A stretch of 63,318 bases of DNA, counting the filler, from Jimgerdemannia flammicorona (taxonomy: Eukaryota), in assembly GCA_003990765.1 (NCBI GenBank). It is 3 parts of 3 records of this genome, joined end to end, with 100 filler letters (N's around TTAATTAATTAA, not from the genome) between each part and the next. Parts side by side here need not be neighbours in the genome. Positions count along the whole stretch, not along the records: positions 42,295 to 63,318 come from RBNJ01001546.1; 2 more parts are not named here. The stretch is one strand, 5' to 3'. Under the pieces are notes generated by a model. That model saw only the letters and a program-made list of their open reading frames with translations. It was not told the DNA's origin and made no database searches. How positions within the stretch are numbered: the first letter of the stretch is position 1; the number at the start of each line of letters is the position of its first letter. Both the position numbers and the translations under genes were made by a program. Positions 3,601 through 63,318 of this stretch are shown here, piece by piece.

Positions 3601-3646
3601 AGTGAATAGGATGTTTTAGAGATAAATTACCTATTCAGAAGAAAGT

Positions 3647-4136: not shown

Positions 4137-4139
4137 ATA

Positions 4140-11424: not shown

Positions 11425-11462
11425 AAGAAATAGTTGCGAGTGCGCGTCAGGTTTTGAACCTG

Positions 11463-11470
11463 CTTATATA
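11463..11470 (-). promoter_or_regulatory. TATA box of the BTB gene
   Basis: TATATAAG on the minus strand ~40 bp upstream of the first ATG. Confidence 0.55.
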
Positions 11471-21048: not shown

Positions 21049-21148
21049 NNNNNNNNNNNNNNNNNNNNNNNNNNNNNNNNNNNNNNNNNNNNTTAATTAA
21101 TTAANNNNNNNNNNNNNNNNNNNNNNNNNNNNNNNNNNNNNNNNNNNN
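21049..21148. other. Assembly gap with artificial six-frame-stop linker
   Basis: N44-TTAATTAATTAA-N44, exactly 100 bp. Confidence 0.97.
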
Positions 21149-36733: not shown

Positions 36734-37030
36734 CAGGGGAGCAAACTCAGAACCAGTGTCAAAGCAAACAGAAGATATGTGGAAAAGTATGTATAAGGGA
36801 GATGAACAAAGAACATAACCAAAAATGCATCAGCCATTTATTGCTACATAAAAATGTAGTCCTTATATACAAAATATGATATCCCAAAAGGGAGGATGCA
36901 TCACAACTTGGGGTGAACTGAATTAGGAATCACATGATCACCAGAGATAAGCAGAGATAAAGAGAGAGCCAATCCCAGTTACAGGATAAAAATCACAAAC
37001 AAACACAAACAAAACAAATCCAAATCAAGA

Positions 37031-37207
37031 TTATAAAACATCTGCAGACCCTGGAGGGGTGAGCATGAGCAAGGGGTGAGGCTGAAATGGAGTAAGCTGC
37101 AGTGAGCCCGAGTGAAGCAAGGGACTGAAGACAGCAGAGGGGAGTGGAGTAAGGCTGAGCCCCCGGAGCGAGTGCAAGACCCCAGAGGGGATAAGGATGT
37201 TTTTTAA
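37031..37207. repeat. 177-bp TIR-bounded hairpin cassette, copy A (part of PLE 3' pLTR)
   Basis: TTATAAAACATC...GATGTTTTTTAA, colinear with 40641-40817. Confidence 0.85.
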
Positions 37208-37299
37208 TCCTCTCCAGCAGAGCTGGAGGTACCAGAAGGTGACAAAAATGCAAAATGAGAGTGATGGATTAAAGAAGAAACAGAAGGAAGATGCAAACA

Positions 37300-40400: not shown

Positions 40401-40817
40401 GTATAAGGAGAATGAACAAGGAATATAACTGAAAATGCATCAGCCATTTATTGCCATGTAAAAATGCAGTCCTTATATACAAAATATGACATCCCAAAAG
40501 GGAGGATACACCACAACTCGGGGTGAACTGAATTAGAAACCACATGACCACTGAAGATAAGCAGAAATAAAGGGAGAGCCAATCCCAGTTACAGGATAAA
40601 AATCACAAACAAACACAAATAAAACAAATCCAAATCAAGATTAAAAAACATCTGCAGACCCCAGAGGGGTGAGCATGAGCAAGGGATGAGGCCAAAATGG
40701 AGTGAGCTGCAGCAAGCCTGAGCAAAGCAAGAGGCTGAAGGCAGCGGAGGGGAGCAGAGTAAGGCTGAGACCCCAGAGCGAGCACAAGACCCCAGAGGGG
40801 GCAAGGATGTTTTTTAA
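40318..40817 (-). repeat. PLE 5' pLTR including hairpin cassette copy B (40641-40817)
   Basis: Direct repeat of 27415-27449 plus 36739-37207. Overlaps the ORF1 start. Confidence 0.88.
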
Positions 40818-41798
40818 TCTCAATTTGGATTTATTTTGTTTGTGTTTATTTGTGATTTTTATCCTGCAACTGAGATTGGCTCTCTCTTTATCTCTGCTTA
40901 TCTCTGGCAGTCATGTAGTTCCTAATTTGGTTCGCCCCGAGTTGTGGTGTATCCTCCCTTTTGGGATGTCATATTTTGTATATAAGGACCATGTTTTTAT
41001 ATGACAATAAACGGCTGATGCATTTTCGGTTATATTCTTTGTTCATCCCCCTTATATACACTTTTCTACATATCTTCCATTTGCTTTGACACTGGTTCTG
41101 AGTTCGCTCCCCTAGCTCTTGCTGGGCCTTCTTCCTCCTCTTTTAATCTTGATTTCGATTTGTTTTATTTGTGTTTGTTTGTGATTTTTATCCTACAACT
41201 GGGATTGGCTCTCCCTTTATCTCTGCTTATCTCTGGCAGTCATGTGGTTTCTAATTCGGTTTGCCCCAAGTTGTGGCATGTCCTCATCATATTTTGTATA
41301 TAAGGACTGCATTTTTACATGGTAATAAATGGCTGATGTATTTTCAGTTACATACATTCTTTGTTCATCCCCCTTATATATGTTTTTCCACATATCTTCC
41401 ATTCAATTTAACACTGGTTCTGGGTTCACTCCCCTGGCTCTTGCTGGGCCTTCTTCCTCCTCTTTTTAATCTCGATTTGGATTTGTTTTATTTGTATTTG
41501 TTTGTGATTTTTATCCTGCAACTGGGATTGGCTCTCTCTTTATCTCCACTTATCTCCGGCAGTCATGTGGTTTCTAATTTGGTTCACCCTGAGTTGTGGC
41601 ACATCCTCCCTTTGGGACATTATATTTTGTATATAAGGACTGCGTTTTTATGTGGCAATAAACAGCTGATGCATTTTTGGTTACATTCTTTGTTCATCCC
41701 CCTTATACATGCTTTTCTACATAACTTCCATTCACTTTGACACTGGTTCTGGGTTTGCTCTCCTGACTCCCACTGGGCCTTCTTCCTTCTCTTCTTAA
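40818..41798 (+). repeat. Three tandem inverted copies (~325 bp) of the pLTR body
   Basis: Units 40818-41146, 41147-41469 and 41470-41798 are each the reverse complement of 40318-40640, joined by TTTTAA. Confidence 0.92.
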
Positions 41799-41989
41799 CC
41801 TTCTAAGGGCTTGAACCACTCAGAGAGAACTAAGCCACACAAACACCTTTCAGTGAAAGACAACATGTTTACAAGTTTTTATTTCGAAAAAACTAGTGTA
41901 CATCATGTGGCAAGAGTCTATCTATAAGGAATAACAAGTTTCAGAGAAAACTGTTGAGTTTTGGCAATATAACTAGTCAAAGTTCCTCT

Positions 41990-42194: not shown

Positions 42195-42294
42195 NNNNNN
42201 NNNNNNNNNNNNNNNNNNNNNNNNNNNNNNNNNNNNNNTTAATTAATTAANNNNNNNNNNNNNNNNNNNNNNNNNNNNNNNNNNNNNNNNNNNN
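42195..42294. other. Assembly gap with artificial six-frame-stop linker
   Basis: N44-TTAATTAATTAA-N44. Confidence 0.97.
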
Positions 42295-42582
42295 CCACCC
42301 CTCAGCGTGTCCGCAAAGCTCCTCCCCTGCTTCCCTCCAGCCCCCCCACCAGTGCCACTACCACTGCCTGAGCCACCCTGCCCACTCGAGCCCCCGAAGG
42401 ACCCCATCCCCAAACCATACCCTCTCCTGACAGTCTGCCAGTCGAAGGCCCCAGTTCCACCCGACCCAGTATGCGCGTCGGCTTGCTTGCTGGATGACAT
42501 TGCCTTAGTATCTTTTCTCCAATAAATGCTTCGAAAGTGTGTTGAAAAGTGTGTGTAACGTGAATTGTAGTGGAGAGAGATG
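42295..42582 (-). mobile_element. 5' end of a young LINE (5'UTR and ORF1 start) inserted in the Gypsy-3 3' LTR
   Basis: MSSSKQADAHTGSGGTGAFDWQTVRRGYGLGMGSF...SFAD matches 52712+ (MSLSKS..AFSWQHVGRGYGLGMGAF..SFAD). 5' terminus CATCTCTCTCCACTACAATTCACG versus CATCTTTCTCCTGTACAATTCATG at 52631. CpG intact. Confidence 0.88.
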
Positions 42583-43512
42583 GCTGTTATGAATTGTGAA
42601 TTGTTATAAGTTCATCAGCAAGGTTGGCAGTGTGATCAGAGTTGGCAGAGATCCTTGGCTAGAGGTCATGTCAGCATCAGAGAGATCATTATCTTCTGCT
42701 TTGTCTTCATTGAAGTGGATTATATTGTAGATGTCCTTCATAGCATATCCAACTTGGGGCATTTGCAGGATATGATCATTGGGGTGTGGGAAGGTTCTGT
42801 CTGTGGTATCAATGTACTCGAGGTACTTGTGGTTGAGTTCTTATATCATGTCATCAATTTGGCCATAGGACAGGGTAGCAACCATTTCAGCTGTGGTAAC
42901 TCAGAGGTGGGGAATAACAGTACTATACTCATAGAAGAGTTCTCGATGTTTGCAGATGAGCTTCTGGTGTTGAGATATCTGGATAATGTCTGTATCATGG
43001 TAGTGTTTGATCATATCTTCCAGGAGGCAGTCGATCTGGTAGTAGCTTGAGATTTGTCCGATTCGGTGGGTCTCGCTAAGTATGTTCAGAGCATTCCATC
43101 AGGCTTCCACGAAGTAGAGGGGTACTAGGCTATGGATATTCATGAGAAGCAGAGGGGGTGTGGCTCAGTTGACAATGGCATTCCAAATGTCAGTATGGAT
43201 ACAGGTATAGATCTCAGTGGTCATGTTTGTGTGTTTGGAAGTTGTAATTGTTGTTTGTTTTGGTTCTCTGATTTGACATGTCTCGGTGCTCGGTATATAT
43301 ACATTTGGTCCTGATTGGTAAGATTCTGTTTGTATGAGTCTTGTGTTCTGTGACTTTGTATTGACTCAGCTTTGTGCACTGTGACTTCGGTTTAACTCAG
43401 CTTCATGATCAAGCAGGTGATTTCCAGATTTGTTCGGAGGTTGTGTGTGATTTCAGTGGCTTGTTCAGAGGGTGATGTGTAATTTTGGTGGCTTAGAGGT
43501 TGTGTGCTTACA
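42583..43512 (-). repeat. Gypsy-3 3' LTR (U3 part; remainder lost beyond the LINE and gap)
   Basis: Direct repeat of ~51176-52068. Confidence 0.93.
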
Positions 43513-46500
43513 ACTCTCCCCTTCTTAGCTTTTGACGTCCTCGTCGGGGCCTTCTAATTTTGTTCTAGTATTGTTACACCATTTGGGAGGTCAAAAGTCT
43601 GGTGAAGTCTATTTTTTTCAGAAAGTGACATACTCATAGTACAGTTGCCTAATGCATTGGGTTCATACATTAAAGGGTCATATGTTCAATGCTGTGTGCC
43701 AGAAGTGATTCTGATGTCATTCACTGCTGGAGAATTTCCTCTAAGGAATCTTCTTAAATGTCTATGCCTTGTTTCCCACCAGTGGTACAGGGAGAATAGG
43801 CTTGCTTTCAGTATTGCTATTTTTCCAGAGGGTTGGTATTCTTGTCTTATTTTGCTGAGTTTTTGATTTGGTTTGCAATAATTATAATGTTTGGAAGGAT
43901 AATATATAGTATGTACGGATAGGTGCAGAGTATTTGGTTTTAGTTGTTTAAGAAATCATATTCCTGAACTAGGTCGGTAGCAATCTGGAGATTGGTCTTG
44001 GGTTCCCAGGTTGCATCGTAAATCGGGTAACCTTTCTATTTGACAAGATACTCAGGGTGGCTCTTGTTACCACATTTATTGAGGTTTTGTTCAACTTCGT
44101 ACTCTTCTTGATCATTAATAATGACAGGTACAGATGGTTTGGTGGTTCGGTTTGGAAATAGCTCATCATCATTCTCATTGTATTGCTTGAGACATTGGAC
44201 ATTAAAGACTGGGTGAATCTTAATGGTGTCTGGTAGCGCCAGTTTGTAGGAGGTAGGAGAGACTTGTGCAATGACTTCAAATGGTCCAATGAACTTGCTG
44301 TTCAGCTTTGTAGATGGTCTGTGCTTGAGGTTGTCAACTTGGTATCCTCTGATGTCCAGTAGAACTTTTTCTCCAATATCAAAAGTTTCTTCTCGGCAGT
44401 GTTGGTTAACATACTGTGACTGTTGTTCTTGAGCTCATGATAAATTATCGATAGCAATCTGGCTTAAATTGCACATTCGGAGTAAGAATTCTTCAACAGC
44501 TTCAACTGTGGAGAGTTCTTCAGTGGTTCAGATAAGTGTCAAAGGGGTGTTTGGGTTTTGTCCAGTGTTGGCGAAGAATGGGATCATTTTGAGAGAGGCT
44601 TGCTTGCTATTGTTATAGGCAAACTCAACTGCAGTGAGGTGTTCATGCCAATCATCTTGTCTGTAGGAAATATAGTTCCTTAGCATTGGTTCTAGAGTTC
44701 GGTTCATTCTTTCAGTTTGGCCATCAGTTTCTGGATAAAAGGCTGTGGATAGTGCAAGTTTTGTTCCAAGGTGTACATGGAGGGCTTTCCAAAAATGGCT
44801 GGTGAATTTCGGGTCTTGGTCGCTAACTATGATCTTAGGAAGACCATGATAGCAGAAGATGTTGTCAAATAAGAGTATAGCTATGTCTGGTGCTGTTGCA
44901 GTAGTGGTAGTAGGCACAAAGTAGGCTTGTTTGCTGAGATAGTCCACAAAGACAATAATTGCATTGTTCCCATTCTTGGTTCGGGGTAGTTGTACAATAA
45001 AGTCCATAGAGATTTGTTCCCAATTAGCAAATGGTACTGGGATAGGGTGAAGTAAGCTGGGTTTTGCTAGTGTTGAGGACTTGTTTCATTGGCAGGCATT
45101 ATAGGAAGTGATGTAGGTTTTGAGCTGATCTGCCATGCAGGGCCAATAGAAGTTTCAGGAGATAACTTCATAGCATTTGTCGAATCCTAAATGTCTAGCT
45201 GTAGGTGCATCATGACATTCAAATAGGATAGTTCTTCAGAGGTCTCGGTTGTTTGGAACATACAGTCTGTCCTTATAGTAGATAGCATTGTCCTTTAGTT
45301 GGTATTGGTGATACTGTGTATACTTGTCAACATCATCACTATTCAGAATTTCTCACAGTATTTGAGCTTCCTTATCATCGGCACATGCTGCAATAATTTG
45401 CTCCATGATAGTGTTGATAACCAAGGTGAGAGTTTGGATAACTTCTTCAATTGGTGGTCTGAAGATTGTATTGGCAACAATATTTTCCTTGCCAGGGCAA
45501 TACTGGATTTCATAGTCAAAGTTGATAAGGACTTTCATCCATCTGGCTTGCTTTCGAGAAAGGGTAGTCTGTGTCTTGATGTTGACTAATGATTTGTGGT
45601 CAGTCAATACAGTGAAGTGTGCTCCTTCTAGATATGGTTGCTATTTGATCAGAGTGTTTACAATGGCTAGCATTTCCTTCTCATGAGTTGCATAGTTAAT
45701 TTCAGCATCATTGAACTTGTGAGAGTGATAGGCCACAGGGTGTCCTTCCTGCATGAGTACTGCTCCAAGGGCTAGGTCAGAGGTATCAGTAGTGACTTCA
45801 TATGGTAGGGCAGGATTTGCTGCTTGAAGTACCGAAGTGGTTATCAAGGCATCTTTTAATGCTTAAAAGGCTGTATCTTGTTCAGGTCCCCAATTCACAA
45901 GATTGTTGAAGTCTTTTTCTTATTTCGTGGTCCAGGGCTGTTCTTCTTTCTTGCTATGCTTGGTCATTTGGGTGAGAGCGGTAGCAATTCTAGCAAAGTT
46001 GGCAACAAATTGCCTGTAATAGTTTGCTAATCCCAGGAATAACTAGAGGTCTTTCAGCTTCTTGAGTCTGGGCTAATCTTTAATTGCAGAGATTTTGCTG
46101 GGGTCCACTTTAATTCCATTTAGAGTAACAATATGTCCAAGGAATTGAATTTCTTTTAGGAGAAATTCACACTTGCTGAGTTTTGCAAAGAGTCGGTTTT
46201 CTTGGAGTTTCAGTAGTACTAGTTCAAGGTGTTCGAGATGTTCCTCCAGGGTTTTGCTGAAGACTAGAATGTTGTCAATATAGATAACAACGAATTTGTC
46301 CAGGTATGGATGTAGGATAGTATTCATCAGGGTCTGGAAGGTTGCAGGAGTATCAGTTAAGCCAAAGGGCATAACCAGGAACTCAAAGTGTCCATAGTGA
46401 GTTCAGAAGGCTGTCTTGTAGATGTCTTCTTCTTTCATGGCGATTTGCCAGTAACCATTTTACAGGTCAAAGGAGCTCATGAATTGTGGGTTGGTAAGTC

Positions 46501-47597
46501 TATCGAATATTTCATCAATCCTCAGTAGTGGGCAACAGTTCTTGATGGTCTGTTCATTGAGATCGCGTAGTCAATGCACATTCGCAGGTCTCCTCCTTTC
46601 TTAACAACAAATAGGACTGGTCACCATAAGGTGATATGCTGGGTCTGATGAATCCTTATTCTAGGAGTTTGTCAATTTCTTTCTTGAGTGCATCGATTTC
46701 TCTTGGAGACATATGGTAGATTGACTTGAAGGCTGGTTTGGCATCTGGGATAGTCTTGATTGCATAGTCTACTGCTCATTTGGGAGGTAGGCCTTTTGGA
46801 AGCTTTTATAGGAATATGTCTCGAAATTTCTGGAGTAGTGGTCTGACATGACTGTCAACTTTGGAAAAATCTTCTTCAGAGTTCTCAGGTTCTCCTTTGG
46901 ATGGATGGATGGAGATGGCGAAGAGAGGGCATTTCTTGGCCAATTTCTTAAGTTGTAGCTTATTGATGTGGGTGATCTTTGGTCCAGGGTCACTAGAATT
47001 AAGTGGGTCCTTTTTACCTTGCAGTTTGAAGTTGTGGCATCCTTTCTTGATGGTCTGAGAATGGTTTACCCAATCAATCATAGGGTTCTCTTATTTTAAC
47101 CATAGAGTCCCAAGGATAATTTCATTGTCAGAAAGTGGTACGATTTGGAGGGTGATATGTACTCGATAGTTGCCAATTCGGAAAGGTAGATTGTGGACTT
47201 TCTTGCTAATAACATGTGAGATTCCATCAGCTGTAGCAACTGCTTGAGTTTGTTGTACCGGAGAGGTGAAGACCTTAAGTCTGTTGGCTGTCTCTTCACT
47301 GATGAAGTTGCCTGAGGCACCACTGTCTATCATAATCTTGACAGATGCTCAGTTGATAAAAGCCTTAAGTGTGAGCAGTTTGTCTGATCCAATGGTGGTG
47401 ATTTCAGTTATAGGAGCTTTCCTTCTATTGGTTCTTCTTTATCCCAGTTCATTGACATAAGAGAAGTAATCATCAATCATTTGGGATGAGTACATTCCAA
47501 TGCCATGGAGATATTGGCCACTTGGTATATATCCATCTTCGATCTTCTCATAGAATTATTCTTCTTTGCTCATAGTAGGTTGGGCTGGGGCCTTGTT

Positions 47598-48010
47598 CGA
47601 TGAGCCAAATCCTTTGGATCCTCTGATAGTAGATAGTAGTTCAGGGACTTCCTTGACTATCAGGGTTGACTCAATTTTTTCAAATAGAATCTGGGCAATG
47701 CAGAAACCTATAGAGATCTTGAAGGGTGTCCAACTATGGTTTTGGATGAGGACAATAATTTTGCCTGTATAATCCTCATCAATGACTCCTTCTTCTACTA
47801 AGAGTTCTTTCAATGCTAAGCTGCTGCAACAGCATATTCTTCTAACATATCCTTCAGGGATTTGGATACTGATTCCTATATAGACTTGTTTGACTTCTCA
47901 GTTGGAAACTGTAGCTTCTTTGGCTACATACAGGTCATATCCAGCTGCTTTTTGACTTCCTTTGATTGGGGCCTTAGCAGTTTGTCTTAACTTGACAAAG
48001 TCCAGCATTC
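47598..48010 (-). pseudogene. Gypsy-3 dUTPase
   Basis: AAGYDLY, IGISIQIPEG, SSLAL, GVIDEDYTGKI, IAQILF, RGSKGFGSS. Confidence 0.92.
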
Positions 48011-50032
48011 TGGTGGTCAGGTTGTTGAGGTGGTGCAGAGTGGTAACAGTTGCTCATGTTGCTGTTCGGGGTTTTTGGTTAGGGCAGGCACTGGCCATGT
48101 GTTCTGTCTTTCGGCAATAGAAGCATGCTCCACTTCTTCAAAGTTCATTCCTTTCGCCTTCAGTAAGTTTCTTGAAGGTACTTGGCTGGATGGGTTCATG
48201 ATTTCTGGGTGTCCAAGAGGTGGATGTAGAGGGAGCTTGGGATGCTTCATGCTTGGGTTCTTCTTTTTTGGTCCAAGTCTTTTCCTTGTTGTTGAATTGT
48301 CTTCAGGGCAGAATTGGTCCAGCTGTTAGGATTTGCTTGACCATAGTCTTAATTCTTGCCAGACACCATTATTGGTGATCACAACCAACTGGTCAGCCTT
48401 GTTCTCGAATTTTTCTAGTAAGCCATTCAGGCAGGGCATCAAATAAATGGTCTGCTCTTGTACCATTTCGTGCTTTATCATTGGCAATATATCCTAGGCC
48501 AACAGTGTTCAGGAGTGACTCAAGTTTTGTACAGAAGGGTTTGAATTCTTCTTTGCCATGTACATTGAATTTGAGGTTGTGGAGTTTTACTCAGGATTCA
48601 GCAATCATGGTTTCACTGCAGTATTGGGCAATAATGAGTTGTTTGAGTCCAGGGGCTGTGGGATGGGCTCCATATCCTGGGGCATTGTTTGCTGCATTCT
48701 GAGCAACTACTACAGGTCAGATATCCCATGTGAGGGGTTTTTCAGGAAGGGTTCACCACCATTCTTTGGTAGGTCCTTGGAAGAATGTAACAACTTGGTG
48801 GACATAGGCTGTAGTGGTAGCAAAGAGTTGTTCCAGAGTGTGGTCTTGATTGTTTGTCAGAACATGGTTGGCAACTCACTCATTGGTCCATTGATTGGCT
48901 TCAAAGTTGGTATCAACTACACTAATGAAGCTTTGGACTTCTTGTGCAGTACCATTAAAGGTAGGTAGGCTCAGATTTTTGGTAGGTTGGTTCTGTTCAG
49001 CTAAGGCAGTAATGGTTGCTGCCATTATGGCTACCTGGGCTGTGAGGTCTAGAATCTGTTGGTTCACCATGTTGTTTACTGGAGGCAGTTGGACTGCTGG
49101 TAGTAGTGTTACTGGTACTACTTGAGGTACTGGTGCAGTGTGTGATGGGGTTCTTTGGGTCTGTGTAAGTTGCTGGAGTAGTAGTTGTAGGTCTGGAGTG
49201 AGGGCTTGATAGATAACTGTTTGTTGCTATGTAGGTGTATTCTGTCCTGATGGAGGTACTTCTCCTTCAGTGGTATATCCGGGATCGAATTCACTGAGAT
49301 ACTCCTCCTCCTCTTCAGTTTGGTCCCCATGTAATTGGGTTTGCTCAGCATCAAAGTAGACAGAATCAGTTGTATATCTGATTTCAGATGGACTTAATTC
49401 AAAGTCAAGTTCAGGTTCGGTATTGGTTTCAGATTCAGGTAGGGCTGTAGTAGGGCCTGCTTCAGGTTCAGGGTCAGGTAGTTGATGAAGGGTTTCTCTT
49501 GCTTCTTCTTTAAGAATATGGTGGGCATTGCTGTTCTGGAATCAGTAGTATAATGTGGTCTTGGTCCTGGTACAGTGAAAATCGGTAGAGTTGAGCCACT
49601 TGGCTACAGAGGCTTGGGCTTTATGAGAAACTAAGGCTAGAAAGACTGCTGCTGGTTGTCCTAGATTGCTTGGATTTGTGGAGCTGACAAAACTCTTGTT
49701 GAGAAGAGTAAAGAAGGCTTCAATAAGACCTTCTTCATCATGACTTACTGGGTATAGTGCAAGGAGTTCAGTAAATAGGGTTTTGCCTATTTGCTGGTTT
49801 AACCAGAGTACTTCTTTCTTTGAATGAAGTTTGTCCCACTTGTTGTAGGTGTGGAGGTCAAATTGTCCTTGTATGTCAGGTTCAATTCTCTCCAGATTGT
49901 CAGATTGTTCAGGATAAATTCCAGTTCAGAGGTTGGGCTTTATACCAACTTATAGGAATTCTCAGAAGAGTTTGTGGCAGGATGAGGAAGTGTCTTGAAG
50001 TGGAATTGGATTGTAAACCACTGCTACTAAGT

Positions 50033-52068
50033 TGTAAGAGGGTTACTTTCTTAGGGTAACTGTTATGTAGTTCTGGAAGGGTTTTTTTAGAAATTCTGGA
50101 TATTCTGGAAGACTGTTTTCTTATGGTCAAGATCAATTTCATATGGAGTACATCCTCTATGCTTATTGATTTCAAGTTTGAGTTGATATCTCAACCAAGT
50201 CCTTTTTCAGACTAGTTCTGGATGTTCAGGATTTTCCATATTTCAGAAAGTTCAAAAAACTAAGACTAGCTTAGTTGAATTGGTATATCGCTGCAGACAA
50301 TACCTAATTAGGAAATTTCGTGATGTGGTTAGGAGTGAGACCTAACAGGGGGTAGATTTACTTAAGAGTGGTTGGAGGGTTATTAAATAGATTTATTCAC
50401 TATTCATACTATTGCTATACTAGGAGAAGTTGTATGAAGGGATATTGTGGGGAAGTGCTCAGGAGTTGTTGTGTTCAGATTGTTCAGGTCTGAGATTCTG
50501 AGGTCTGAGGGAGGGGGTATTTATACTAGTGAGAGGCTATCTGGACTATGCTGAATATAGATGTAGCACTAAGTGTCTTGCTGAGTCAGAATGCAGTCAT
50601 GTAGTATAAGTATGATCTGATATGTCAAGAGATCGTCTGACTGCTGAGTCAGTTCACAGTCATGTCATACAAGGCTAATCTAACTATACTATGACTGCTA
50701 GGCTATTTATAGGTTTAGGCACTGTCTGGGTAGTCTTCGATGACATCACCATCAATTGCATCATCTCTGATGAAGTAGTCATCTAGGAAGAGTGGTTCAC
50801 GGATTACTTCTCCTTGTTCGCTGAGGTAATAATACATTGGAACTTCGTCTCCATCCCACAAGATGGCATCATCAGTCTCATATGTGGGGTAAGGTATTGG
50901 TGGGTAAAGGAGGGGTACATCATCTTTACTTTTATTGGTTTTGCTATCTGCATATCTTCTATAGGTTACAGCACTATGAGTCATGGGGTTGTAGTAAGCT
51001 GGCAGCTGTGGTTCATGTCACTCATACTCAGATAGTGGAGTGGTTGGTTCAATCTTGAGGGTTGTCTGGAGGTATAGGTTATATTCTCCGGTCTCTTCAT
51101 TATAGTTGAAGTAATCAGGGGTGAATGCGGGTTGGTATTTGTGCCAGTGGTCATTGTCCCAATAAGTCTCATATGCTGTTATAAATTGTTGTAAGTTCAT
51201 CAGCAAGGTTGGCGGTGTGATCAGGGTTGGCAGAGATCCTTTGCTAGAGGTCATGTCAGCATTAGAGGGATCATTGTCTTCTGCTTCGTCTTCATCAAAG
51301 TGGATTATATTGTAGATGTCCTTCATGGCATATCCAACTTGGGGCATTTGCAGGATATGATCATTGGGGTGTGGGAAGGTTCTGTCTGTGGTTTTGATGT
51401 ACTTGAGGTACTTATGGTTAAGTTCTTGTATCATGTCATCAATTTGGCCATAGGACAGGGTAGCAACCATTTCAGCTATGGTAACTCAGAGGCAGAGAAT
51501 AACAGTGCTATACTCATAGAAGATTCTCGATGTTTGTGGGCAATGAGCTTCTGGTGTTGAGACATCTGGGTAATGTCTATATTGTGGTGGTGTTCAATCA
51601 TGTCTTCTAGGAGATGGCCGATCTGGAGTAGCTTGAGATTTGTCCGATTTGGTAGACCTCACTAAGCATGTTCAGAGCATTCCATCGGGCTTCCATGAAG
51701 TAGAGGGGTGCTAGGCTATGGATATTCATGAGGGGCAGAGGGGGTGTGGCTTAGTTGACAATGGTATTCCAAATGTCAGCATGGATATAGGTGTAGATCT
51801 TGGTGGTCATGTTTGTGTGTTTGGAAGTTATGATTGTTGTTTATTTTGGTTCTCTGATTCGACACATCTCGGTGCTCAGTATATATGCATTTGGTCCTAA
51901 TTAGTAAGATTCCGTTTGTGTGAGTCTTGTGTTCTGTGACTTCGTATTGACTCAGCTTTGTGCACTGTGACTTCGGTTTGACTCAGCTTTGTGATCAAGC
52001 AGGTAATTTCAGTGGCTTGTTCAGAGGGTGATGTGTAATTTCGGTGGCTTGGAGGTTGTGTGCTTACA
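50033..52068 (-). repeat. Gypsy-3 5' LTR (2036 bp)
   Basis: 6-bp inverted termini, TATAAATA at 50525-50518, AATAAA at 50397-50392, adjacent PBS. Confidence 0.9.
50715..51810 (-). pseudogene. ~365-aa orphan ORF encoded within LTR U3
   Basis: ORFs 51018-51470 and 50715-50984 are in frame. The second LTR copy (43224 downward) repairs two 1-nt deletions and extends the frame to MTT(E/K)IYT. Stops in one copy are CGA/CAA in the other. Confidence 0.8.
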
Positions 52069-52630
52069 CAGACTATGGCGGCAGGGGCTTGAGAAGTGAG
52101 AGTGGCCCACTAGATATCTTTCAAGACTCCTTCAAGCTAGGAGGGTGCAACACTGATGAGATGGAGTCTTGGATGTCAAGGGAGATATGGTACATAGCAC
52201 GCAACAGATCCTGGGAGTACTGAAGGAAAGATGGAGGGGTCTGTGGAGTGAGGAGGAAGGGGGTACTGATGAAGAGGCAATTGAAGACTCACTGGAGGAG
52301 TGGGGGCTGCTACAAGTAGAAGGACTGGGTGATTTGATCTTATCAGTCCAAGAGGAGGAAATCCAGCAGGTCCTTGCAGTAACTAAGCTAGGGATGGCAC
52401 CAGGTGAGGATTGGTTACCTTGGGACTTCTGAAAGAAGATGGCAAAGGTACCTGGAGTTTTAGGAGAGATGACTGCTCTCTGTGATCATGTTCTTCTGAA
52501 TAGCAAGTGGGTTTGAGAGCAGGACTTGGGGCTGGTGGCCTTATTGTACAAAGACAAGAGAAGGAGGCAGGACTGGAAGAACTGGAGACCAATCATACTT
52601 CTGGATATAGACAGAAAGATGGTGACTTGG
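52069..52630 (+). mobile_element. Internal ORF2 fragment of an older LINE (target of Gypsy-3 and of the next LINE)
   Basis: Closely similar to 60791-61348, with APGEDWLPWDF and WKNWRPIILLDIDRK. Confidence 0.9.
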
Positions 52631-53044
52631 CATCTTTCTCCTGTACAATTCATGTTATACAAACTTCAAGCAATGGTTTTCAACACAACTTAGAGAAAAG
52701 GTACTATAAAAATGTCGTTGAGCAAGAGTTCTGAAGGGTGTGCTGGGTCAGGTTGACCTTGGGCTTTCAGCTGGCAGCATGTGGGGAGAGGTTATGGGTT
52801 GGGGATGGGGGCTTTTAGAGGGTTTATGGGTGGTGAAGGCTCTGGAGGAAGACCAGTATCAGGTGGATCTGGGGGGAGGCCTGGTTCCTCCAGTTTTGCT
52901 GACAAGGTGAAGGTGAGTGGATGGCCTGCTGAAACCAGGACTGGTGCTGCTGAGGAGAAGGGCAAGGCTAGCGTCAGGAGGGGGAGTGGCCCTCAGGTGG
53001 AAGATGTGAGTATAGGGGCTGGAGGGGCTGTGGCTGGGGGTATG

Positions 53045-53210
53045 TATTGAGATTACAGGTTACAACTCGATATAGCACTTGATATAGATAATTTGTAGTT
53101 CAGTGGTGTTGGGGTGACATCATCAATAATCGCGTAAAAGCACGTACCATTAGGTGATCAATAAACATTCTTCTTCTCCCATCCTTCCTATTCCTCCTGA
53201 GTTCACAACA
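53045..53210 (+). repeat. Copia 5' LTR
   Basis: Direct repeat of 57796-57961. Confidence 0.96.
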
Positions 53211-56200
53211 AAGGTTATGAGCCCTGCTAGCGAAAGCAGATAATATACACACCTCTTTAGTATATGCTATACTACAACATACAAAGATGTCAAACCCAGG
53301 AAGCCCAAGCTCAAGTGCTGCGATACCAAGCCTGGCAAGTAACACAAGCGGAGCAAGTACTGGCATGGGTACTACAGTCTCTCCAGTGGGTGCCCCAGTG
53401 ATTACTCTGGTGGCAGCTATGACAACAAAAAGGATGATTCCTGTCTTTGATGGTAAGGATTATGCCATATGGGCATACCATATGAGGAATCTCTTGGAGG
53501 AATGCAGTCTAGAGGGCTACTGGAAGCCACAGGCTCAAGTAATGGGATATGATGCAGCAAAGGATCACAAGGCGTTGAGGGAGATCATGTTCACTCTATC
53601 GAATGAGCAAATGAAACTTGTTATGAATGCTATGATAGCGAATAAAGTCTGGGAGACCCTATGCGATCATCATCAACAAGTATCTGCATCCAACAGATTC
53701 CACCTGAAGAGACAGTTATTCAATCTATAGAAGAAGCCCCAAGGAGAGTATTCAAGAGTATGCCAACTGTATCAATGATCTGATGAATCAGGTGAATTCT
53801 CTTTCTACACCAGCAGACCTCATCAGAGAGAAAGACAAGGTCCTGGCCCTTATACGAGGCCTTCCTGATATGTTTAATGTGGTTGTGTCTGCTATGTGGA
53901 AATCTGATAAGCTCTCGGACTATAAGCATATTGTCACAAGCCTATTAAATGATGAATCAAGGCAGAACAATGGTGCAAATAAAGACTATGATGAGAAAGC
54001 ATTCTATGGCACGTGTGGTTGAGGCAAAGGAAAGCCAAGCAAAGGACAAGGACAACGCAATGGTCAACATGTCAAATTCGGCAGTAAGTGCTTCTACTGT
54101 GATAAGCCCAGACATCACATCCAAGACTGCAATCTTAAGAAGAAAGAAAAGAGAGACCAATGTGGTCAAGCGAACATCGTGGACACCAACAATCAAGGTG
54201 GCGATGGAATGTTTTTCACAGAGATGGAGAGCTGCCAACATGCTGATATAAGCTATATGCCTGACAGTGTTAATGTGTGCAGTGAAGAAGTTTGGCTTAT
54301 GGATTCTGGCGCAACATAATATATGACAGCATACTGCAAATAGTTCTCTATGTATGAGAAGTTCGAGCATCCCATACCTATCAAGCTAGGTGACAACAAT
54401 GTGATCTATGCTCAGGGCAAAGGAAATGTCAGTATACATCTGCATGGAAAGGTCGAAGAACCCTCAGGCACCTTTGCAGACATACTATACACTCTAAATA
54501 TAGGCAAAAATCTCTTCTCAATAGGATGAATGATGGCCTGAGGAGACAAAGGAGTAAACATATGTCCAAACGGAGTAACGATAATCAATCTAAAGAACAA
54601 TAAGGAATTAATGTATGCATTGAAAAGAGGAAATCTTTATGCAATCGACGGTATGCCAAACGGTACATTGGCACATTCCACAATGATAAACAACACCTGG
54701 CATATATGGCACGAATGATTAGGACACATTGATCAGACAAGCTTAGAATGGATGATGAGGAATAGCTCAGTGAAAGGATTGCCGAACTGTACATCTCTGA
54801 ACTTCTTTTGCGATGACTGTGTAGTGAATAAGGATTCTCGGAAATCTTTTCAGGAATGGACAAAGCAAGTAAATGGTATACTCAATCTTATACATACTGA
54901 CATTTGCAGTCCCATGCATACATCATCACACTCCAGGAAGAAGTACTTCATTACTTTCATAGATGACTATACTTGTAAGGCCTATGTATACTTCCTCTCT
55001 GCAAAGAGCAAAGCATTTGAGAAATTCAAAGAATTCAAGGCAAGTATGGAGAATGATATGAAACATCAGATAGAGATGCTATGCTCGGATAATGGGACAG
55101 AATATGTAAATAAGTCCTTTAAATATTTTTTAAAAGAGCATAGAATATGATATATTAGAATGGCTCCCTATACACTGCAACAAAATGGCATAGTGGAACA
55201 GTTCAATTGAATGATCGTTGAGATGGCCCAAACAATGATGAATGCAGCTGGCCTGCCACAATCCTTCTGGGCCAAAGCATTGAACACAGCAGTGTATATA
55301 CATAATCGATGCATTTCTCGAGCCTTATGCAAAGAGAGTGACATACAGTCTAAGGATGATAACCTTACACCTGAAGAACTGTGGAGCAGATCCAAGCCTG
55401 ACATCTCACACTTATGGACATTCAGAAGCAAGGCTTACATATTGGATAAAAGTGGAAATAGAGGAAAATTTAAGCCTAAGGTGGATAAGCATATATTCCT
55501 TGAATATGATGGATTAGCATATAGGCTGTGGAATATGCAAAAGCATGATATAATCATCTCTCGCAATGTTCAGTTCAAAGAGAAAGCAAAGGAAATTTGC
55601 ATGGAAATTCCTATACCTGTAACCAATCTAATGGCGAGTGGAATTACACCAACGGTGAGCGCAAATACTACACCAACAATTCTGGCAATGGTGATACAAC
55701 CAATGCCTATGAGATCAACAGTACAAACACCTACAAGACCCCCTGAACTGAGAATTACAGAGATTTTGGATAACAAAGAGGACATCTCTCCAAAGGGTAA
55801 GAAAAAGCACAAATCTGGGATAGATAACAAAGTCCAAGTGGATCTGGGAAATCACTGGGACCCACCCAAGTTATCTCATCGCAAGCAATATTATGTGAAC
55901 TATGCCTGCAAATGCGCTTACATAGCAATGACCAGTAAGCTGGCACACTATGACAAAGCCATTCATTTGAGTGATAAAAAGGAGTGGAAAAAGACAATGG
56001 ATGAGGAGTATGGCTCACTCATCAAGAACAACATGTGGGACTTGGTCCCTCTTCTAGCAAATTGACAAGCCATAGGATCCCAATGGGTGTATAAAATCAA
56101 GCATGATAGCAATGGCAGCGTAGAACAATACAAGGCCCGATTCGTGGCAAAGGGGTATTTATAAGACTTTGGAGTTGACTACGATGAGATGTTTTTCCCA

Positions 56201-57795
56201 GTATTCAAGCTTATTTCACTTAGAATACTTCTTGCGATTGGAGCTAAGTATGACTATGAGATATATCAAATAGACATTATGACAGCCTTCCTAAATAGAG
56301 ATGTGGATACCGATCTATACATTCTTCAACCACAAGGATATAAACTCTATGACAATAAAAAGGAGTTAGTATACAGACTATACAAAGGCCTCTATGGCAT
56401 AAAACAGGCGGTGAGGCTATGAAATCGAAAGATCGACGATTATCTCATAGAAGAGAACAGGTTCAAACGATACAAAGCAGACCCATGCATATATACTCAT
56501 CATATATCCTCAGAAATAGTGTACCTGGGAATTTGGGTTGACGATATCATTCTGGTCAGGACAACAAGTGAGATCAACAAAGTAAAGGCAGTATTATGTA
56601 AGAAGTTCAAAATGACAGATATGGGTGACATGTCTTTCCTTTTGGGGATATCCATCATATGTGACAGGAGCACGTGTACTATACACCTAAGCCAAGAAGC
56701 CTACATTCAGACAATACTCAAGTGATTTGGCATGAGTGAGTGCAAGCTAGTCAGAACACCGATGAAGATGTCTGTGAGACTAAAGAAGTCTGATACACCC
56801 GATGACAACAACATTCCCTATCAACAAGTGGTGGGATCCCTTATGTATCTAATGCTCGGGATGAGACCTGATCTATCACATGCAATTAACAAGGTGGCGC
56901 AATATGCATCATGCTACGACAACTCGCATTGGATGACAATCAAGCATATATTCAGATACATTAAAGGTACAAAGAGCTATATGCTCAATTTGAGTGATAA
57001 AGGAGTTAAAAGATTAAGTGAGAGTACTGTTACAGTAAGCCTTTCTAGCACATGTGATGCTGATTGGACTGGGGACTTACATGACAGAAGGTCTATGATA
57101 GGATACTTCTTCTATCTCGATGATAGTAGAGCCATTTCATGGCAAACTCATAAGCAATCATCAGTAGCAATGTCATCTATACAAGTGGAATATCAAGCAT
57201 TATCAACAGCGATGAAGGAGGCCATCTGGCTTTGTGAACTACTAAAGGATCTGGGATTCCCTCAAGAATCTATGACTATACGACAGGATAACCAATCTAC
57301 CATTGCTTTGGCAAAAAACCCTATACATCATGCAAGGACCAAGCATATCAATATACAGCACTATTATATACGAGAATGTATTGAAAATGAGACTATATGC
57401 CTATTATACACCCTTATGGAGCAAATGGTGGCAGATTTGCTAACAAAGGCCCTTCCAAAGGCAAAGTTTGATTTTTGCACACAAGAAATGGGTATAACGA
57501 TAAGTGATGAGCAAATAATAGCGAACGATGGGTAAAAATAAATATTACGGCAAAACGACAGGTAGAATGAGTGTTACAGCAAATATTTGTGATGGAAACC
57601 TATAACATTGCTCAGGATTTCCATTTTTTTTTTCACTACTTCTCTTACCTATTTTTATGCTTATAAGTGGGGAATTTCGACCTTTTTTGGTCATCTAGAT
57701 AGTATCCCATTGGTAATGTTTTGTTTTCTGCTTAACTTAGCTGGAGATTGATCAGTTTTATTTGTATTTGCATTCTTTATCTCATTGAGCGGGAG

Positions 57796-57961
57796 TGTTG
57801 AGATTACAGGTTATAACTCGATATAGTACTTGATATAGATAATTTGTAGCATAGTGGCGTTGGAGTGACATCATCAATAATCATGTAAAAGCATGTAACA
57901 TTAGGTGATCAATAAACATTCTTCTTCTCCCATCCTTTCTATTCCTCCTGAGTTCACAATA
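57796..57961 (+). repeat. Copia 3' LTR
   Basis: Direct repeat of 53045-53210. Confidence 0.96.
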
Positions 57962-60900
57962 GTATGACTATTGATGGGAGTATGATGGAGAATCAGGAAA
58001 AAAAAAGAGATGTGATAGCTGATAGCCAGGTGGGGCAGGGATTTCTGATGCAGAAGGGGGACCTGGCAGATGGTGTAATAGGGCTGATGGTGGCCCCATT
58101 GCTCAAGAAGTCAATCTCAGAGTTTGCAGCTATCTTGTACTTCTGGGGCTTGGTGGTGACAGTAAGGATGGTCCTGGGGCTTATTTCGAAGCAGGTGGCT
58201 GGGGCAGCCTCAGTGAAGTTCCTGAAGGGTCTGGAGGGGGTTGAGGTGGGCTTTGAGGAGGCAGGCCCACTGGATGAGGCCCTGAAGACTGGAGTAGTGG
58301 TAGAGGAAGTTGTGGTTCCCATAGTGCAGTGCTTGAGGTGGGACGCCAGAGTGGTGCAGCTTCTGGTGAGGGGGGTGCCTACAGTGACAAGAGAGGAGAC
58401 TAGGAGGAGGGTGGAGGAGGTGATGGTAGAGTATGATGATGTGGTGGACATTGGCTTCTAGATGTGGGAGGGGATCACATTCAGGACAGAGGACATTGAT
58501 GTCAGGATTCGACTGATAGGGAAAGAGACCATAAGGAAGATGAGTGACTGGCCCTCAGTGCTGATGTGGGGGGCTTTTGTCTGTAAGGTATTGAGGGTGA
58601 AAGGGAGTGAAGAGGAGAAGGAGGACTTGTTGGAGGCTCTGGAGGAGTTGAGTGGTATAGTAGAGAGAAGGGCAAAAGCCTGGAAGCTGTATGAAGAGTC
58701 GATACATCTGGAGGTTGTGGATGCGAAACATATCTGTACTGATAAGAGGCAGTGGGAGTGGGCCCAGGGGTGCAAGAGACAGAGGGAGCTTTTGGCTAGT
58801 ATAAAAGAAGGGGTGAAGAAGAAGGTAGATGGGGCTGAGGGATCTAGAGGCATCGAAGCTAGTGTCTGGGCTAGTAAAAGAGAAGAGGAGGTGAAGGCGA
58901 ATAAGGAAGGGGCTGAGAAGGTACTGGGTAAGGATCCCTATGCTGATGGTATATTCAAAGTTTGGGAGCAGGACTTGGATGGCACCCCCCCCCCCCCACT
59001 TATCAGGAGGGGCCCAGTTGGGAGAAGAGGGGCAGCAGAGGATGTACTGATGCAGGGGACCCAGAGAGTTCACTTTGGAGTCCTAGATGTGGCAAAAGGG
59101 GGCCAGGTGGTGGCAGTTGGTGAGGACAAGCTGGTGGATATCCCAGAGGAGGAGTGGGATGAGGCTACCAGTGTGGGAGCAGATACTACAATGCTGGATG
59201 CAGGGCAGCCAGGGACTCCTGGAGAGGAGGAGGTGGAGAACCTACTGTAGATGAGCAAGGTGATGAATAATCTTGTGGCTAAGGAGTTGGGAGAAGTTGA
59301 TCTGTGTGTAATGCTGTAGGAGTATTGGGCATAGATTCTGCATGGGGATGGGGTGGTGGAGGCACTGAAGGTGGAGATTCTTACTATTTTCCTAGAGGAG
59401 GAGGGATACAAGGTTGATAAGGTGAGAGAGGTGGAGCTGGTAGTGGTTGCTGGTGAGTGAGCTGTCTACTGTTGGGCAGAGCATCATAGTTTACAACTCT
59501 GGCAAGAGGCATGCCTGGAGTATCATGAGGACTTCGAGGAAAAGGAGGATAGGGTGATGGCTGAACTTCTGGAAGGGTTGGAGGCACAGGCAGCTGAGAA
59601 GAAGGTACTGGCTGCTGAATATGACTTGGACTTGGCACAGGAGGAGTTGAATGTGGATTTGTAGAGGCAGTGACTGATAAATCAACATTATGTCTAATGA
59701 ACAGTACAACTAACATTTTCTCTCTGAATGTGAATGAATTGCAGGGTTCTGGGTAATGTAAGAACATTTTTACTTAGCTTAAGGGATTGGAGGCTGATCT
59801 CTTTTCACTGCAGAATGTATGGTGTGAGGATGAGATAGATCAAGTGGAGTGGACTAGAGAGTGGGGAGGAGCCTCTGCTTAGAATGGCAAAGTGGCAATT
59901 CTGGTGAGGAAGGGCAGAGGGGACTTGAGTGGGATTCAGAGCTGGGGTGACCGTTTGGTCTGGGGAGAATAGCATTGATCTGAGTGGGAATCAGTGAGGG
60001 TTGGCTCCTGCTACTGCCCTGTAGTTAGGGGTGAGCATATTGAGTAGATTAGGGATCTGTTAGAGGAGGGTGTCTTCTTGGAGAAAGGTGCTGATGTTCT
60101 GGGGGGTGACTTTAATATGGTGCAGGATCCACAGCTGGATTGAACTGATGGAGAGAGGAGTATAGGTGGAAGGAGTGATGGACTGGATAAGTGAGAGGAG
60201 GTGGAGACCCTTAGCTCCTTAGGGAATATGGACAGAACATGGTGGGGTGACAAGAGGGTCTATACACACTAGGTAAATAGACTGGGTATAAGGATTGACT
60301 GGATTCTGACAGCTGAATATTGGGGTGTTGATGTTTGGAGGATATTGGCAGTAGAGTGGTGCCCTTGGTCTGACCACTGGGGGCTATTGGGGCAGGGACA
60401 GTTTGGGGGGAGTGGAGATGGACCCAGACATTAGTGCCTTAACTCCTCTCTGCTGGCAGAGCAGGGTTTGTGGGACCTATGGGTGGCAGACATCCAAGTG
60501 AAGATCACCACCTAGATAAGGGAGGGTGCAGCTGTGGGTGTCTGGTGGATGAGACTGAAGAAGGCTACAAGGGTTTATTGAGAAGAAGCTGGTAGGGAGG
60601 CTGGGAGGCAGAGAAGGAAGAGAGTGTGGTATGCTTCCAATAGACTGATTAGATTGCAGATGAAGTAGGCTGAGTTGCTTTGCTCTGCAGCAGTAGAGGA
60701 TTGGAGGTTGGAGTGGGCAAAATTGGAGGTAATAGAACTGCAACATATATTGTGAGCTGAGGAGGAGATTCACATAAAAGGAATGGCTGCCAGACTATGG
60801 TGGCAGGGACTTGAGGAGAGAGAGTGGCCCACTAGATACCTGTCAAGGCTCCTCTAAGCTAGAAGTATGTGACACAGATGAGATAGGGTCTTGGATGCTG

Positions 60901-63318
60901 AGGGGGATATGGTGCATGGCATGCAACAGATCTTGGAAGTACTGAAGAAAAGATGGCAGGGTCTGTGGAGTGAGGAGGAAGGGGGTGCTGATGAAGAGGT
61001 GATTGAAGACTCACTGGAGGAGTGGGGGTCACTGCAAGTAGACAGACTGGGTGATTTGATCTTACCTGTCCAAGAGGAGGAAATCCAGGGAGTCCTTATA
61101 GCAACTAAGCTAGAGATAGTGCCTGGTGAGAATGAGTTACCTTGGGACTTCTGAAAGAAGATGGCACAGGTCCCTGGAGTTTTAGAAGAGATGGCTGCCC
61201 TATGTGACCATGTTCTTCTAAATAGTGAGTGAGTTGGAGAGCAGGACTTGGGACTGGTGGCCTTATTGTACAAGGATAAGGGGAGGAGGGAGGACTGGAA
61301 GAACTGGAGGCCAATCATGCTTCTGGATATAGACAGGAAGATGATGACTAAGGTGATTGTTGTGAGGCTACAGAGGGTTGCCCAACAGGTGCTGGGTGAG
61401 GAGTAGAGGGGCTTTGTAGGAGGCAGGCTTATCAGGAATGGGACTGCCTGAGTGCATGGCATCATTGAAGAGGCCAGGGCTTGTGGACTAGATGGTAGAT
61501 TGGTCTTTTTGGACTAGGAGAAGGCCTACAACCATGTTCAGCAGGTTTGGTTAGGCAAGGTGCTGGACAGAATTGATGTTCCCCCATGGTTTCAGTCTTC
61601 TATATTGAATTTGTTGGAGGGTAGTAGGGTGGTACTAATGTGTAATGATCACCAGGGTTTGGCATTTCTCTTGAGAAGAGGAGTTCCTCAGGGAGACCTG
61701 CTGTCTTCTATCCTTTATGCTCTCTCATTGGAACCTTTGATGGATAGAATATGTCGGAGAGTGGCAGAGCTCTCTATGTATGGTGTGGTGTGGAAGGTTG
61801 GGGCTTTTGCAGATGATATGGTAGTTGGACTTAGATCAGTGGCAGATGTTGGGGTATTTAAGGAGATAGTGGAATAGTATGAGGTACACTCTGGGGCAAA
61901 ACTCAACTAGCATAAATGTGAGATAATGGTGTTAGGGAATGGGCTAGTGGGAGGGGACATCATTGGAACAATTGTCCCTACAGCAGAGGTAGTATGGTAT
62001 TTGGGCATCTTTCTTTATATATGACTCTGTCTTGCCTTGAGTATGGTGGGAGAGGAGAGTAGACATTTGGGGGGAGGCTAGAGATTGGAGGGGTCACCAC
62101 ATCTCCCTGGCAGGGCAGGTGTCGATTCTGAATGTCTACTGGTTCCCCAAGCTATGGTATGTGGCCTATCACTTAGATTTCCCAACTTGAGTAGTGAAGA
62201 GACTGATGAAACTGGCTAGGGATTGGATTTGGACAGAGAGGAGATCCCAGATCAGTTGGGATACTCTTGCAACACTGGTGGTTAGGGGAGGACTAGGCCT
62301 TGTGGATTTCTCTAAGTAGCTGTACTGCCTGCAAGCCTGGTGGTTGAAGAGAGCTGTTGAACTGCAGGGAGGAGGTTGGGTGCCACTGATGCAGAAGGTG
62401 TGGGAGATAAGGTACTCCTCTTTGGGGTCCTCAGGAGATTTGCTCTCTCTGGTGGGTCTGACTGAAAGCCAACAGCTATGAGGGCTTCTGGTAGAGAGTG
62501 GTAGAGGGAGCACATTGGATAGGCCTGTGCTGGTGAGGAAATGAGGGGGAGGTGTTGGGGGGTCCAGCTATGTGGAGGTGGGACAGACTCCTCTGGGGAG
62601 TGTTCTGCTTGCTGAGTTTGATATTGGTAATGGGGTGGAGTGTCAGCAAGGACTTGGTCAGGATCTTTGACTAAGTAGTTGGCAGGCAGTAGGGATTGGC
62701 AAGGAGTGGGACTGGGCAGAAGTCTGGTCATGGAGTGCTGAGGTGTAGAGGTGGCTTCCTCTCAAGTTCTGGGTAGTATGGTGGCAGATGCTGAGGAGGA
62801 ATATCATGCTAAATTTCCATGCTGGGCATCTGGTGGATGGTGGCCACTTTGATTGTGAGGAGTGTTATAATGTAGGGCAATTTGGGGGATTTGTGCAAAT
62901 GCCAGAACATTGGGTAGGAGGGTGTGAAGTTCTTGGGGACTTTTGGATAGCAGTAGGGGACTGGCTGGGTGTGGTGAGGAGGCCAGATAGAGAGAGAGGT
63001 CGCTGGGAGGATTTGAAGTCTTGTTTAGTGGGGGGTGTTGGTAATGGTTGGCTTACTATAGGGTGGGTTTTAGCAGTATAGGTAGGGCTGGCTGGACATT
63101 GGCTTTTTGTTTTTGAGGAGGGGCACCAGATAGGTGTCCAGGAGAAGTTGTTAAGGTGGGAGGGGTTGTTGAGTAATTTGCTGACTGAGTGGTGGGTTGG
63201 TTGGGGTCCCCAGGGTGGGCAACATTGCCAACTGGTGGAAGGGATTTGTGAACAGAGTGGTGGGCAAGTGGTGCTGGTGTCTGACAAAGTAGTCATTCAT
63301 CATGAGGGAGTGGGGGGG

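Follow-up and report, generated by a model that had tools for sequence, protein, structure and literature searches.

We consider it likely that the long terminal repeat (LTR) belonging to a high-copy Ty3/Gypsy retrotransposon family in Jimgerdemannia flammicorona carries a genuine protein gene of about 365 codons, which lies wholly within the repeat and most likely in its unique 3' (U3) region. The element occupies the minus strand of part of a 63,318-nucleotide (nt) stretch of assembly GCA_003990765.1, referred to here in its entirety as the window. The open reading frame (ORF) is real, sits inside the LTR, is open in relatives and has a core that evolved under protein-level constraint. We regard it as a genuine accessory ORF that is specific to its family and housed in an LTR, as a variant of the known "additional ORF" theme and as a member of no named family. 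The gene consists of a predicted helical N-terminal part of about 113 residues and an acidic, Tyr/Pro-rich C-terminal part of about 250 residues. An earlier note on this DNA had described a sense frame at 51810-50715, inside the LTR and upstream of the TATAAATA motif at 50525-50518, and the frame is read in the sequence at that place with the peptides quoted for it.

Two database proteins carry much of the evidence. Searches were run with the core of the frame, X standing at its stop (query P0001), and with the N-terminal part as found in the 3' LTR copy, X standing at its three stops (query P0003). Among 120 candidates the core query had a sole match, P0002, an unbroken protein of 247 amino acids (aa) from a 998-nt ENA contig (E 1e-103). 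It is identical to the core at 162 of 250 positions (65%) and positive at 207 of 250, with two in-frame gaps; it covers codons 114-365, and it shares with the core both the first Met, which is an internal Met of the full frame, and the C-terminus. For the N-terminal part the sole candidate was P0004, which has 128 aa, comes from a JGI/IMG contig of 1180 nt and matches the 3'-copy reading at 76% identity (E 2e-49). Its frame begins at the first ATG and stays open past the internal Met as far as codon 128, with Arg in place of each of the three TGA codons of the 3' copy, and it ends at the site of the TAA that the 3' copy bears at codon 128. Jointly, the two relatives span the whole frame of about 365 codons, with a sense codon wherever the window is broken. 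Each forms a one-member cluster, and none of 55 candidates scored in a search for shorter proteins. The loci of the relatives were sought in JGI metagenome, prokaryote genome and viral contigs, and none was confirmed there. The ORF is conserved across copies of a high-copy family, and its only relatives are P0002 and P0004; no homologue outside the element was found.

Within the window the frame begins 258 nt inside the LTR and ends about 682 nt short of the LTR end (Table 1). In the 5' copy it is broken by a TAA at 51753-51751 (codon 20), by 1-nt gaps near 51627 and 51524, and by TGA codons at 51488-51486 and 51020-51018; relative to the 3' copy there are two 1-nt gaps, which the earlier note had reported and which alignment places at these positions, and one 3-nt insertion. 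In the 3' copy, codons 20, 42 and 108 read TGA, and codons 128 and 207 read TAA. Since the 3' LTR is cut at 42594, the copies overlap for only about 210 of the roughly 365 codons, and the last 155 or so are present in the 5' copy only. The earlier note held that the two copies complement each other. This is so at codon 42 (TGA in one, CGA in the other), at codons 128 and 207 (TAA and CAA) and at both frameshifts, but not at codon 20 (TAA in the 5' copy, TGA in the 3' copy) or at the TGA of codon 108/109, where both copies have a stop, nor at the TGA at 51020-51018, which lies in the single-copy part. With two shared stops and a third in single-copy sequence, an intact ancestor does not emerge from the window by itself; the ancestral frame, which the note had taken from the two copies to be probably intact, is instead supported by P0004 and P0002. 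In tblastn against the 5' copy, P0004 aligned as three frame-shifted pieces and P0002 as one piece. Because both copies bear the two stops that precede it and P0002 starts there, the internal Met (51470) was considered as the start of the ORF; this reading was dropped after P0004 and the periodicity test.

Could such a frame have arisen by chance in an A/C-rich LTR that holds no gene? Chance frames are lengthened by the composition of the strand, which has little G (15%) and rather little T (24%), and in 2000 dinucleotide-preserving shuffles of the LTR, read on both strands, the longest frame averaged 92 codons. An open frame of at least 155 codons appeared in 20 of the 2000 shuffles, but a frame of at least 256 codons with at most one stop appeared in none, so that the observed frame was never reached. 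Where the coding frame of the core has a single internal stop, the two remaining sense frames have 12 and 35, and the codon periodicity of the core (chi2 55.7, p 3e-10) is like that of the reverse transcriptase (RT)/RNase H pieces of the same element (53.2), with G at 29% of first codon positions versus 9% and 12% at the other two. The 3' copy also shows periodicity over its N-terminal 113 codons (chi2 23.9, p 5e-4), and none is seen in the 681 LTR nucleotides that follow the ORF stop (p 0.8). A 65%-identical relative has the same start and end, and we judge a chance frame to be extremely improbable. The ORF might also be a relic. Having once been an ordinary extra ORF that lay between pol and LTR, or a fragment transduced from the host, it would have been swallowed by the LTR as the plus-strand priming site moved and would now be useless, P0002 and P0004 being open by youth or luck. 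Frameshifted copies are common in the family, the two LTRs of the window differ in a neutral manner, and only two open relatives were found, all of which would suit a relic. Against it, P0002 differs at 35% of residues and yet has no stop, no frameshift and an excess of conservative replacements. Neutral evolution was simulated from the window core DNA to 65% protein identity (1000 runs for each of three transition biases); only 1.2-3.6% of runs stayed free of new stops, and the share of BLOSUM-positive columns averaged 0.74-0.76 (standard deviation (sd) 0.017, maximum 0.81), so that the 0.83 observed for P0002 stands more than 4 sd above neutral. As the simulation left indels out, the test is a lenient one. 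The protein searches gave no host homologue either, and we consider a useless relic quite improbable.

Other copies of the family were examined in the contigs of four public runs, aligned on 50000-52100 at a likeness of at least 80%. Of the 12 indels listed, out of 19 in these aligned contigs, none falls in the 756-nt core, seven fall in R/U5 (the repeated and unique 5' regions of the LTR) and five in 51474-51626. At 51488, where the window has TGA, a sense codon accounts for a depth of 18.8 of 18.8 in run X2, 7.9 of 16.9 in X5 and 8.0 of 36.6 in X1. Frame length, periodicity, conservative replacements and the absence of listed core indels all point to coding sequence. The core was clearly under protein-level selection in the active lineage, and the N-terminal part was probably coding too, on thinner evidence, while the many dispersed copies read as decayed or as derived from frame-shifted sublineages.

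Several observations weigh against a functional LTR gene and are set out here together. Both window copies are broken, dead pseudogenes in a dead element. Their differences fall at codon positions 1, 2 and 3 in numbers of 21, 17 and 21 and comprise 16 synonymous versus 32 non-synonymous codons, the synonymous share expected under random transitions being 0.34; they look neutral, as dead copies should, and are silent on the active lineage. The frame-shifted N-terminal state of the 5' copy is common to many other copies. At 51523 the letter missing from the 5' copy is present at depths of 11.9 of 40.8 (X1), 18.8 of 18.8 (X2) and 6.06 of 16 (X5), and at 51626 at depths of 18.4 of 99, 16.3 of 19.8 and 4 of 24.2, respectively. 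Of 20 listed majority differences within the frame, nine are synonymous, ten non-synonymous and one changes a stop to Arg, a distribution indistinguishable from neutral. The relatives number two among 5.8 billion proteins and are known from protein sequence alone, and an exhaustive search with P0002 of 1.84 billion representatives returned only P0002 itself. Because P0002 begins at the internal Met, the N-terminal part is backed by one close relative only. Neither Pfam (E up to 1) nor a PDB sequence search gave a match for the protein, and no domain, fold or solved relative emerged from Pfam, PDB, ESM Atlas or structure models. Finally, the placement in U3 is drawn from motifs, and the LTR ORF is known here from its sequence.

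In the four runs 2996, 400, 297 and 452 contigs aligned on it, and the Gypsy family is one of high copy number. The two LTRs of the window align over 51179-52069 and 42594-43513 at 88-90% identity, with transitions making up 77 of 82 substitutions. The 3' LTR stops at 42594, 300 nt from an assembly linker, where unrelated G+C-rich sequence takes over, and the pair therefore cannot define the 3' end of the LTR. The limits have independent support in the contigs, which break off at 52068, where the consensus of their loose ends reads as the polypurine tract in reverse complement, and also at 50033/50051. Summed contig depth falls several-fold in the outermost bins beyond 50033-52068 in the three runs for which no RNA origin is guessed. 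With the TGTAAG and CTTACA ends and the polypurine tract at the 3' copy, these data uphold the length of 2036 nt given in the earlier note. That note had also named a condition under which its proposal would fail, namely that the supposed LTR was a tandem duplication of an internal 3' region with a shorter true LTR. We checked and rejected this: the outer flank of the 5' copy is a Copia LTR and not pol, which rules out a duplicated internal region, and the repeat begins right after the polypurine tract. The two LTRs differ by 10-12%, including a 30-nt indel and 1-nt indels that are polymorphic among other family copies, and the pair represents either a very old insertion or a recombinant of two elements.

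Judged from its motifs, the ORF most likely lies in U3, between tandem, enhancer-like repeats at the 5' end of the LTR and a pair formed by TATAAATA at 50525 and AATAAA. The ORF stop precedes this TATAAATA by 190 nt, and AATAAA follows it after 128 nt. An alternative layout would have the genomic RNA start at the TATA-like box at 51887-51879, so that the ORF would lie in an R region of about 1.5 kb, as a 5'-proximal cistron before gag, like ORF0 of Retrosat2 or ORF1 of Ogre but within the repeat. In both copies the first ATG does follow directly on the TATA-like motif and a leader rich in A and C, and Retrosat2, RIRE3 and RIRE8 are described with extra ORFs before gag in the available part of PMC3485330. 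However, the canonical TATAAATA with AATAAA behind it delimits, past the ORF, an R of the usual length. One of about 1.5 kb would be exceptional, and gag would need reinitiation past a cistron of 365 codons; we hold this layout to be unlikely. In the fourth of the runs, X13, whose RNA nature is no more than a guess, summed contig depth reaches 2273-6422 in 50213-50425 and 10-17 in 50497-50780. A start shortly past the TATA box at 50525 would agree with this, but contig depth shows neither starts nor levels, and these values were not used as evidence.

Under the preferred placement in U3, genomic RNA would start past the TATA box at 50525, and the ORF would be situated at the 3' end of that RNA, beyond pol and the polypurine tract. 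It would then be translated from a shorter mRNA that ends at the LTR's own poly(A) signal. Such an mRNA could have its start at the TATA-like box that precedes the first ATG by about 70 nt, and every LTR, solo LTRs included, could then express the ORF; alternatively, it could be produced by splicing to a YAG acceptor-like site that lies 5 nt upstream of the internal Met (51470). The product may serve the element in trans as an accessory factor. Carried further, each LTR would be a self-contained gene cassette of enhancer-like repeats, TATA-like box, 365-codon ORF and the element's promoter and poly(A) site, and full elements as well as the far commoner solo LTRs would all express a family-specific acidic protein acting in trans, for example in anti-silencing or in particle or nuclear-entry steps. 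The family would then hold an independently arisen Metaviridae counterpart of the U3 accessory genes of complex retroviruses, a proposal that we put forward as doubtful.

The predicted protein is indeed acidic and rich in Tyr and Pro, as the earlier note had said (isoelectric point 4.1-4.2, Tyr about 10%, Pro about 9%), and has no Cys. No hydrophobic segment was found, the maximum hydropathy over 19 residues being below 1.0; lacking a transmembrane segment, the protein is not env-like. The ESM Atlas held only P0002 itself, with a poor model and nothing usable. Of the structural checks suggested in the note, AlphaFold2 models could be made on two-row alignments, but with a mean confidence (pLDDT) of 29.7 for the core and of 51.3 for the N-terminal part, where five helices appear at low confidence, they were too poor for a fold search.

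The remainder of the element conforms to the Ty3/Gypsy pattern. Its pol domains follow one another on the minus strand in the order protease (PR), RT, RNase H and integrase (IN), with Pfam matches starting at 47348, 46402, 45862 and 45085, which is the order of the Ty3/Gypsy group (Metaviridae), and it has the direct repeats with TG...CA ends, the polypurine tract and, by eye, the primer-binding site of an LTR retrotransposon. The 12-mer at that site may resemble the 3' end of an initiator tRNA-Met. The gag-like frame gave no Pfam match. No Chromo match was obtained at E<=0.1 in the two stop-free frame pieces tested downstream of SH3_Tf2-1, where the region is decayed.

Table 1 Features of the Gypsy element and of its LTR-borne ORF (positions along the window).
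Feature	Position	Strand	Basis or remark
LTR-borne ORF, 5' copy, ~365 codons	50715..51810	(-)	broken; terminal TAA 50717-50715
Conserved core, codons 114-365, from internal Met 51470; 251 codons, one TGA (51020-51018), 756 nt	50715..51470	(-)	P0002, periodicity, indels
N-terminal part, codons 1-113	51471..51810	(-)	P0004, periodicity; AlphaFold2 helices
ORF in 3' copy, codons 1 to ~210, ATG 43224	43224-42594	(-)	no frameshift
5' LTR, 2036 nt, TGTAAG...CTTACA	50033..52068	(-)	sequence, alignment to 3' copy, contig ends and depth
3' LTR remnant	42594..43512	(-)	alignment to 5' copy
TATA-like CATATATAC, ~70 nt upstream of ORF first ATG, candidate promoter of ORF mRNA	51879..51887	(-)	in both LTR copies; motif only
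Second TATAAATA, just past ORF stop	50711-50704	(-)	motif only
TATAAATA, candidate promoter of genomic RNA; U3/R border would be ~25-30 nt downstream	50518..50525	(-)	motif only
AATAAA, candidate polyadenylation signal, R/U5 border	50392..50397	(-)	motif only
Primer-binding-site-like 12-mer, 3 nt past LTR end	50018..50029	(-)	by eye
Polypurine tract, 20 nt, directly upstream of 3' LTR	43514..43533	(-)	sequence; recurs as loose-end consensus beyond 52068 in runs X2, X5
Decayed Ty3/Gypsy element	~42.6-52.07 kb	(-)	Pfam domains and LTRs
Gypsy internal region	43513..50032	(-)	every coding piece interrupted by stops and frameshifts
gag-like frame, 350 codons	49925-48876	(-)	precedes Pfam domains
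dUTPase	48053-47556	(-)	Pfam 1e-20; between gag and protease
Protease (gag-asp_proteas)	47348-47091	(-)	Pfam 2e-11
RT (RVT_1)	46402-46073	(-)	Pfam 9e-20
RNase H (RT_RNaseH_2)	45862-45353	(-)	Pfam 3e-22
Integrase (rve)	45085-44528	(-)	Pfam 3e-8
SH3_Tf2-1	44434-44036	(-)	Pfam 1e-18

The window has a G+C content of 41.6% and is made of three joined contigs, separated by two 100-nt assembly linkers (21049-21148 and 42195-42294), each consisting of 44 N, a 12-nt three-frame stop spacer and another 44 N. The G+C-rich sequence that replaces the 3' LTR at 42295-42593 (-) has a Gly/Ser-rich frame that opens at ATG 42500 and extends as far as the linker. A fragment of a host gene and a further insertion are both conceivable sources of this sequence. 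On its other side, the Gypsy 5' LTR adjoins to the base, at its outer end, the 5' LTR of a Copia element at 52069-61349 (+), whose LTRs (52069-52627 and 60791-61349) are 86% alike and which has Retrotran_gag_2 at 53221-53730 and SH3_retrovirus at 55211-56065. Just past the second linker there are repeats of about 330 nt, direct and inverted and 82-89% alike, at 40317-41802 and 36734-37209. Another LTR pair (27450-28278 and 35843-36733, 92-95% alike) flanks an RVT_1-bearing frame at 31829-32653 (-). When P0002 and P0004 were compared with the whole window by tblastn, only chance-level matches (E>=3.8) were obtained outside the Gypsy LTR copies, and the latter LTR family is therefore without the LTR ORF. 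A second dUTPase remnant at the start of the window (141-611 (+), 1e-8) presumably belongs to another element, and a 225-codon frame at 10786-11463 (-) with a weak BTB/POZ match (1e-5) is possibly the sole host-like gene fragment seen in the window.

A conserved gene that lies wholly in an LTR has changed genetics, being doubled in every element and left behind in every solo LTR, and the LTR ORF occupies a place like that of accessory genes in complex retroviruses. Provided that it is expressed, its copy number scales with the number of LTRs and not with that of elements, and the family would be a natural test case for the roles of accessory proteins in intracellular retroelements. There is also a practical warning here, as routine masking treats LTRs as non-coding. 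Phrase searches of the literature brought up no Metaviridae element with an LTR-borne ORF, subscription papers and supplements lying outside their scope, and the term "LTR ORF" leads mainly to sag of mouse mammary tumor virus (MMTV).

In MMTV, a betaretrovirus, sag is the "LTR ORF" of U3; it lies 3' of everything else, needs an mRNA of its own, and encodes a type II membrane glycoprotein. The likeness to the present ORF is one of position only, in that a full-length gene is contained in the LTR, here in U3 as judged by motifs. The host element, in contrast, is a Metaviridae retrotransposon and not a retrovirus, and the protein is acidic and free of hydrophobic segments; it has no Pfam or PDB match that would relate it to Sag, and it lacks the membrane anchor. 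The genes nef of lentiviruses and bel/bet of spumaviruses are 3'-end accessory genes that overlap U3 but start upstream of the polypurine tract. They resemble the LTR ORF as accessory genes at the 3' end that extend into U3, whereas the LTR ORF starts inside the LTR, and there is no sequence similarity.

Among retrotransposons, the rice Gypsy elements Retrosat2, RIRE3 and RIRE8 have LTRs of more than 3 kb and an ORF0 between the 5' LTR and gag, according to the available part of PMC3485330. As in the J. flammicorona family, their LTRs are unusually long and their extra ORF is an orphan whose divergence is faster than that of pol; in the same text, however, ORF0 is placed outside the LTR, and it has no sequence relation to the LTR ORF. 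Fungal Gypsy elements with a dUTPase, namely PosPlaTy3, the Phanerochaete elements and Tmt1 of Tuber, are likewise similar in having dUTPase beside PR-RT-RH-IN (RH, RNase H), but the accessible passages of PMC2864245 describe no LTR-borne ORF for them, and in the present element the dUTPase is located between gag and PR. The closest general theme is that of the additional ORFs (aORFs) of LTR retrotransposons, which, in the portion of PMC7264820 at hand, include env-like ORFs in Athila and Bagy2 and antisense ORFs in Grande, RIRE2, Retand and Boty, and which are assigned to the internal region, for the most part to the stretch from pol to the 3' LTR. As in these cases, the LTR ORF is a family-specific extra ORF besides gag-pol, present in many copies and with no homologue outside the elements, and it agrees with the commonest class of that account in its sense orientation and in its presumed position 3' of pol on genomic RNA. 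It differs from the env-like aORFs in that its product has no transmembrane segment. Unlike the internal-region aORFs treated in PMC7264820, it lies downstream of the polypurine tract and wholly in the LTR, and it is thus duplicated at both ends of the element and carried along by solo LTRs.

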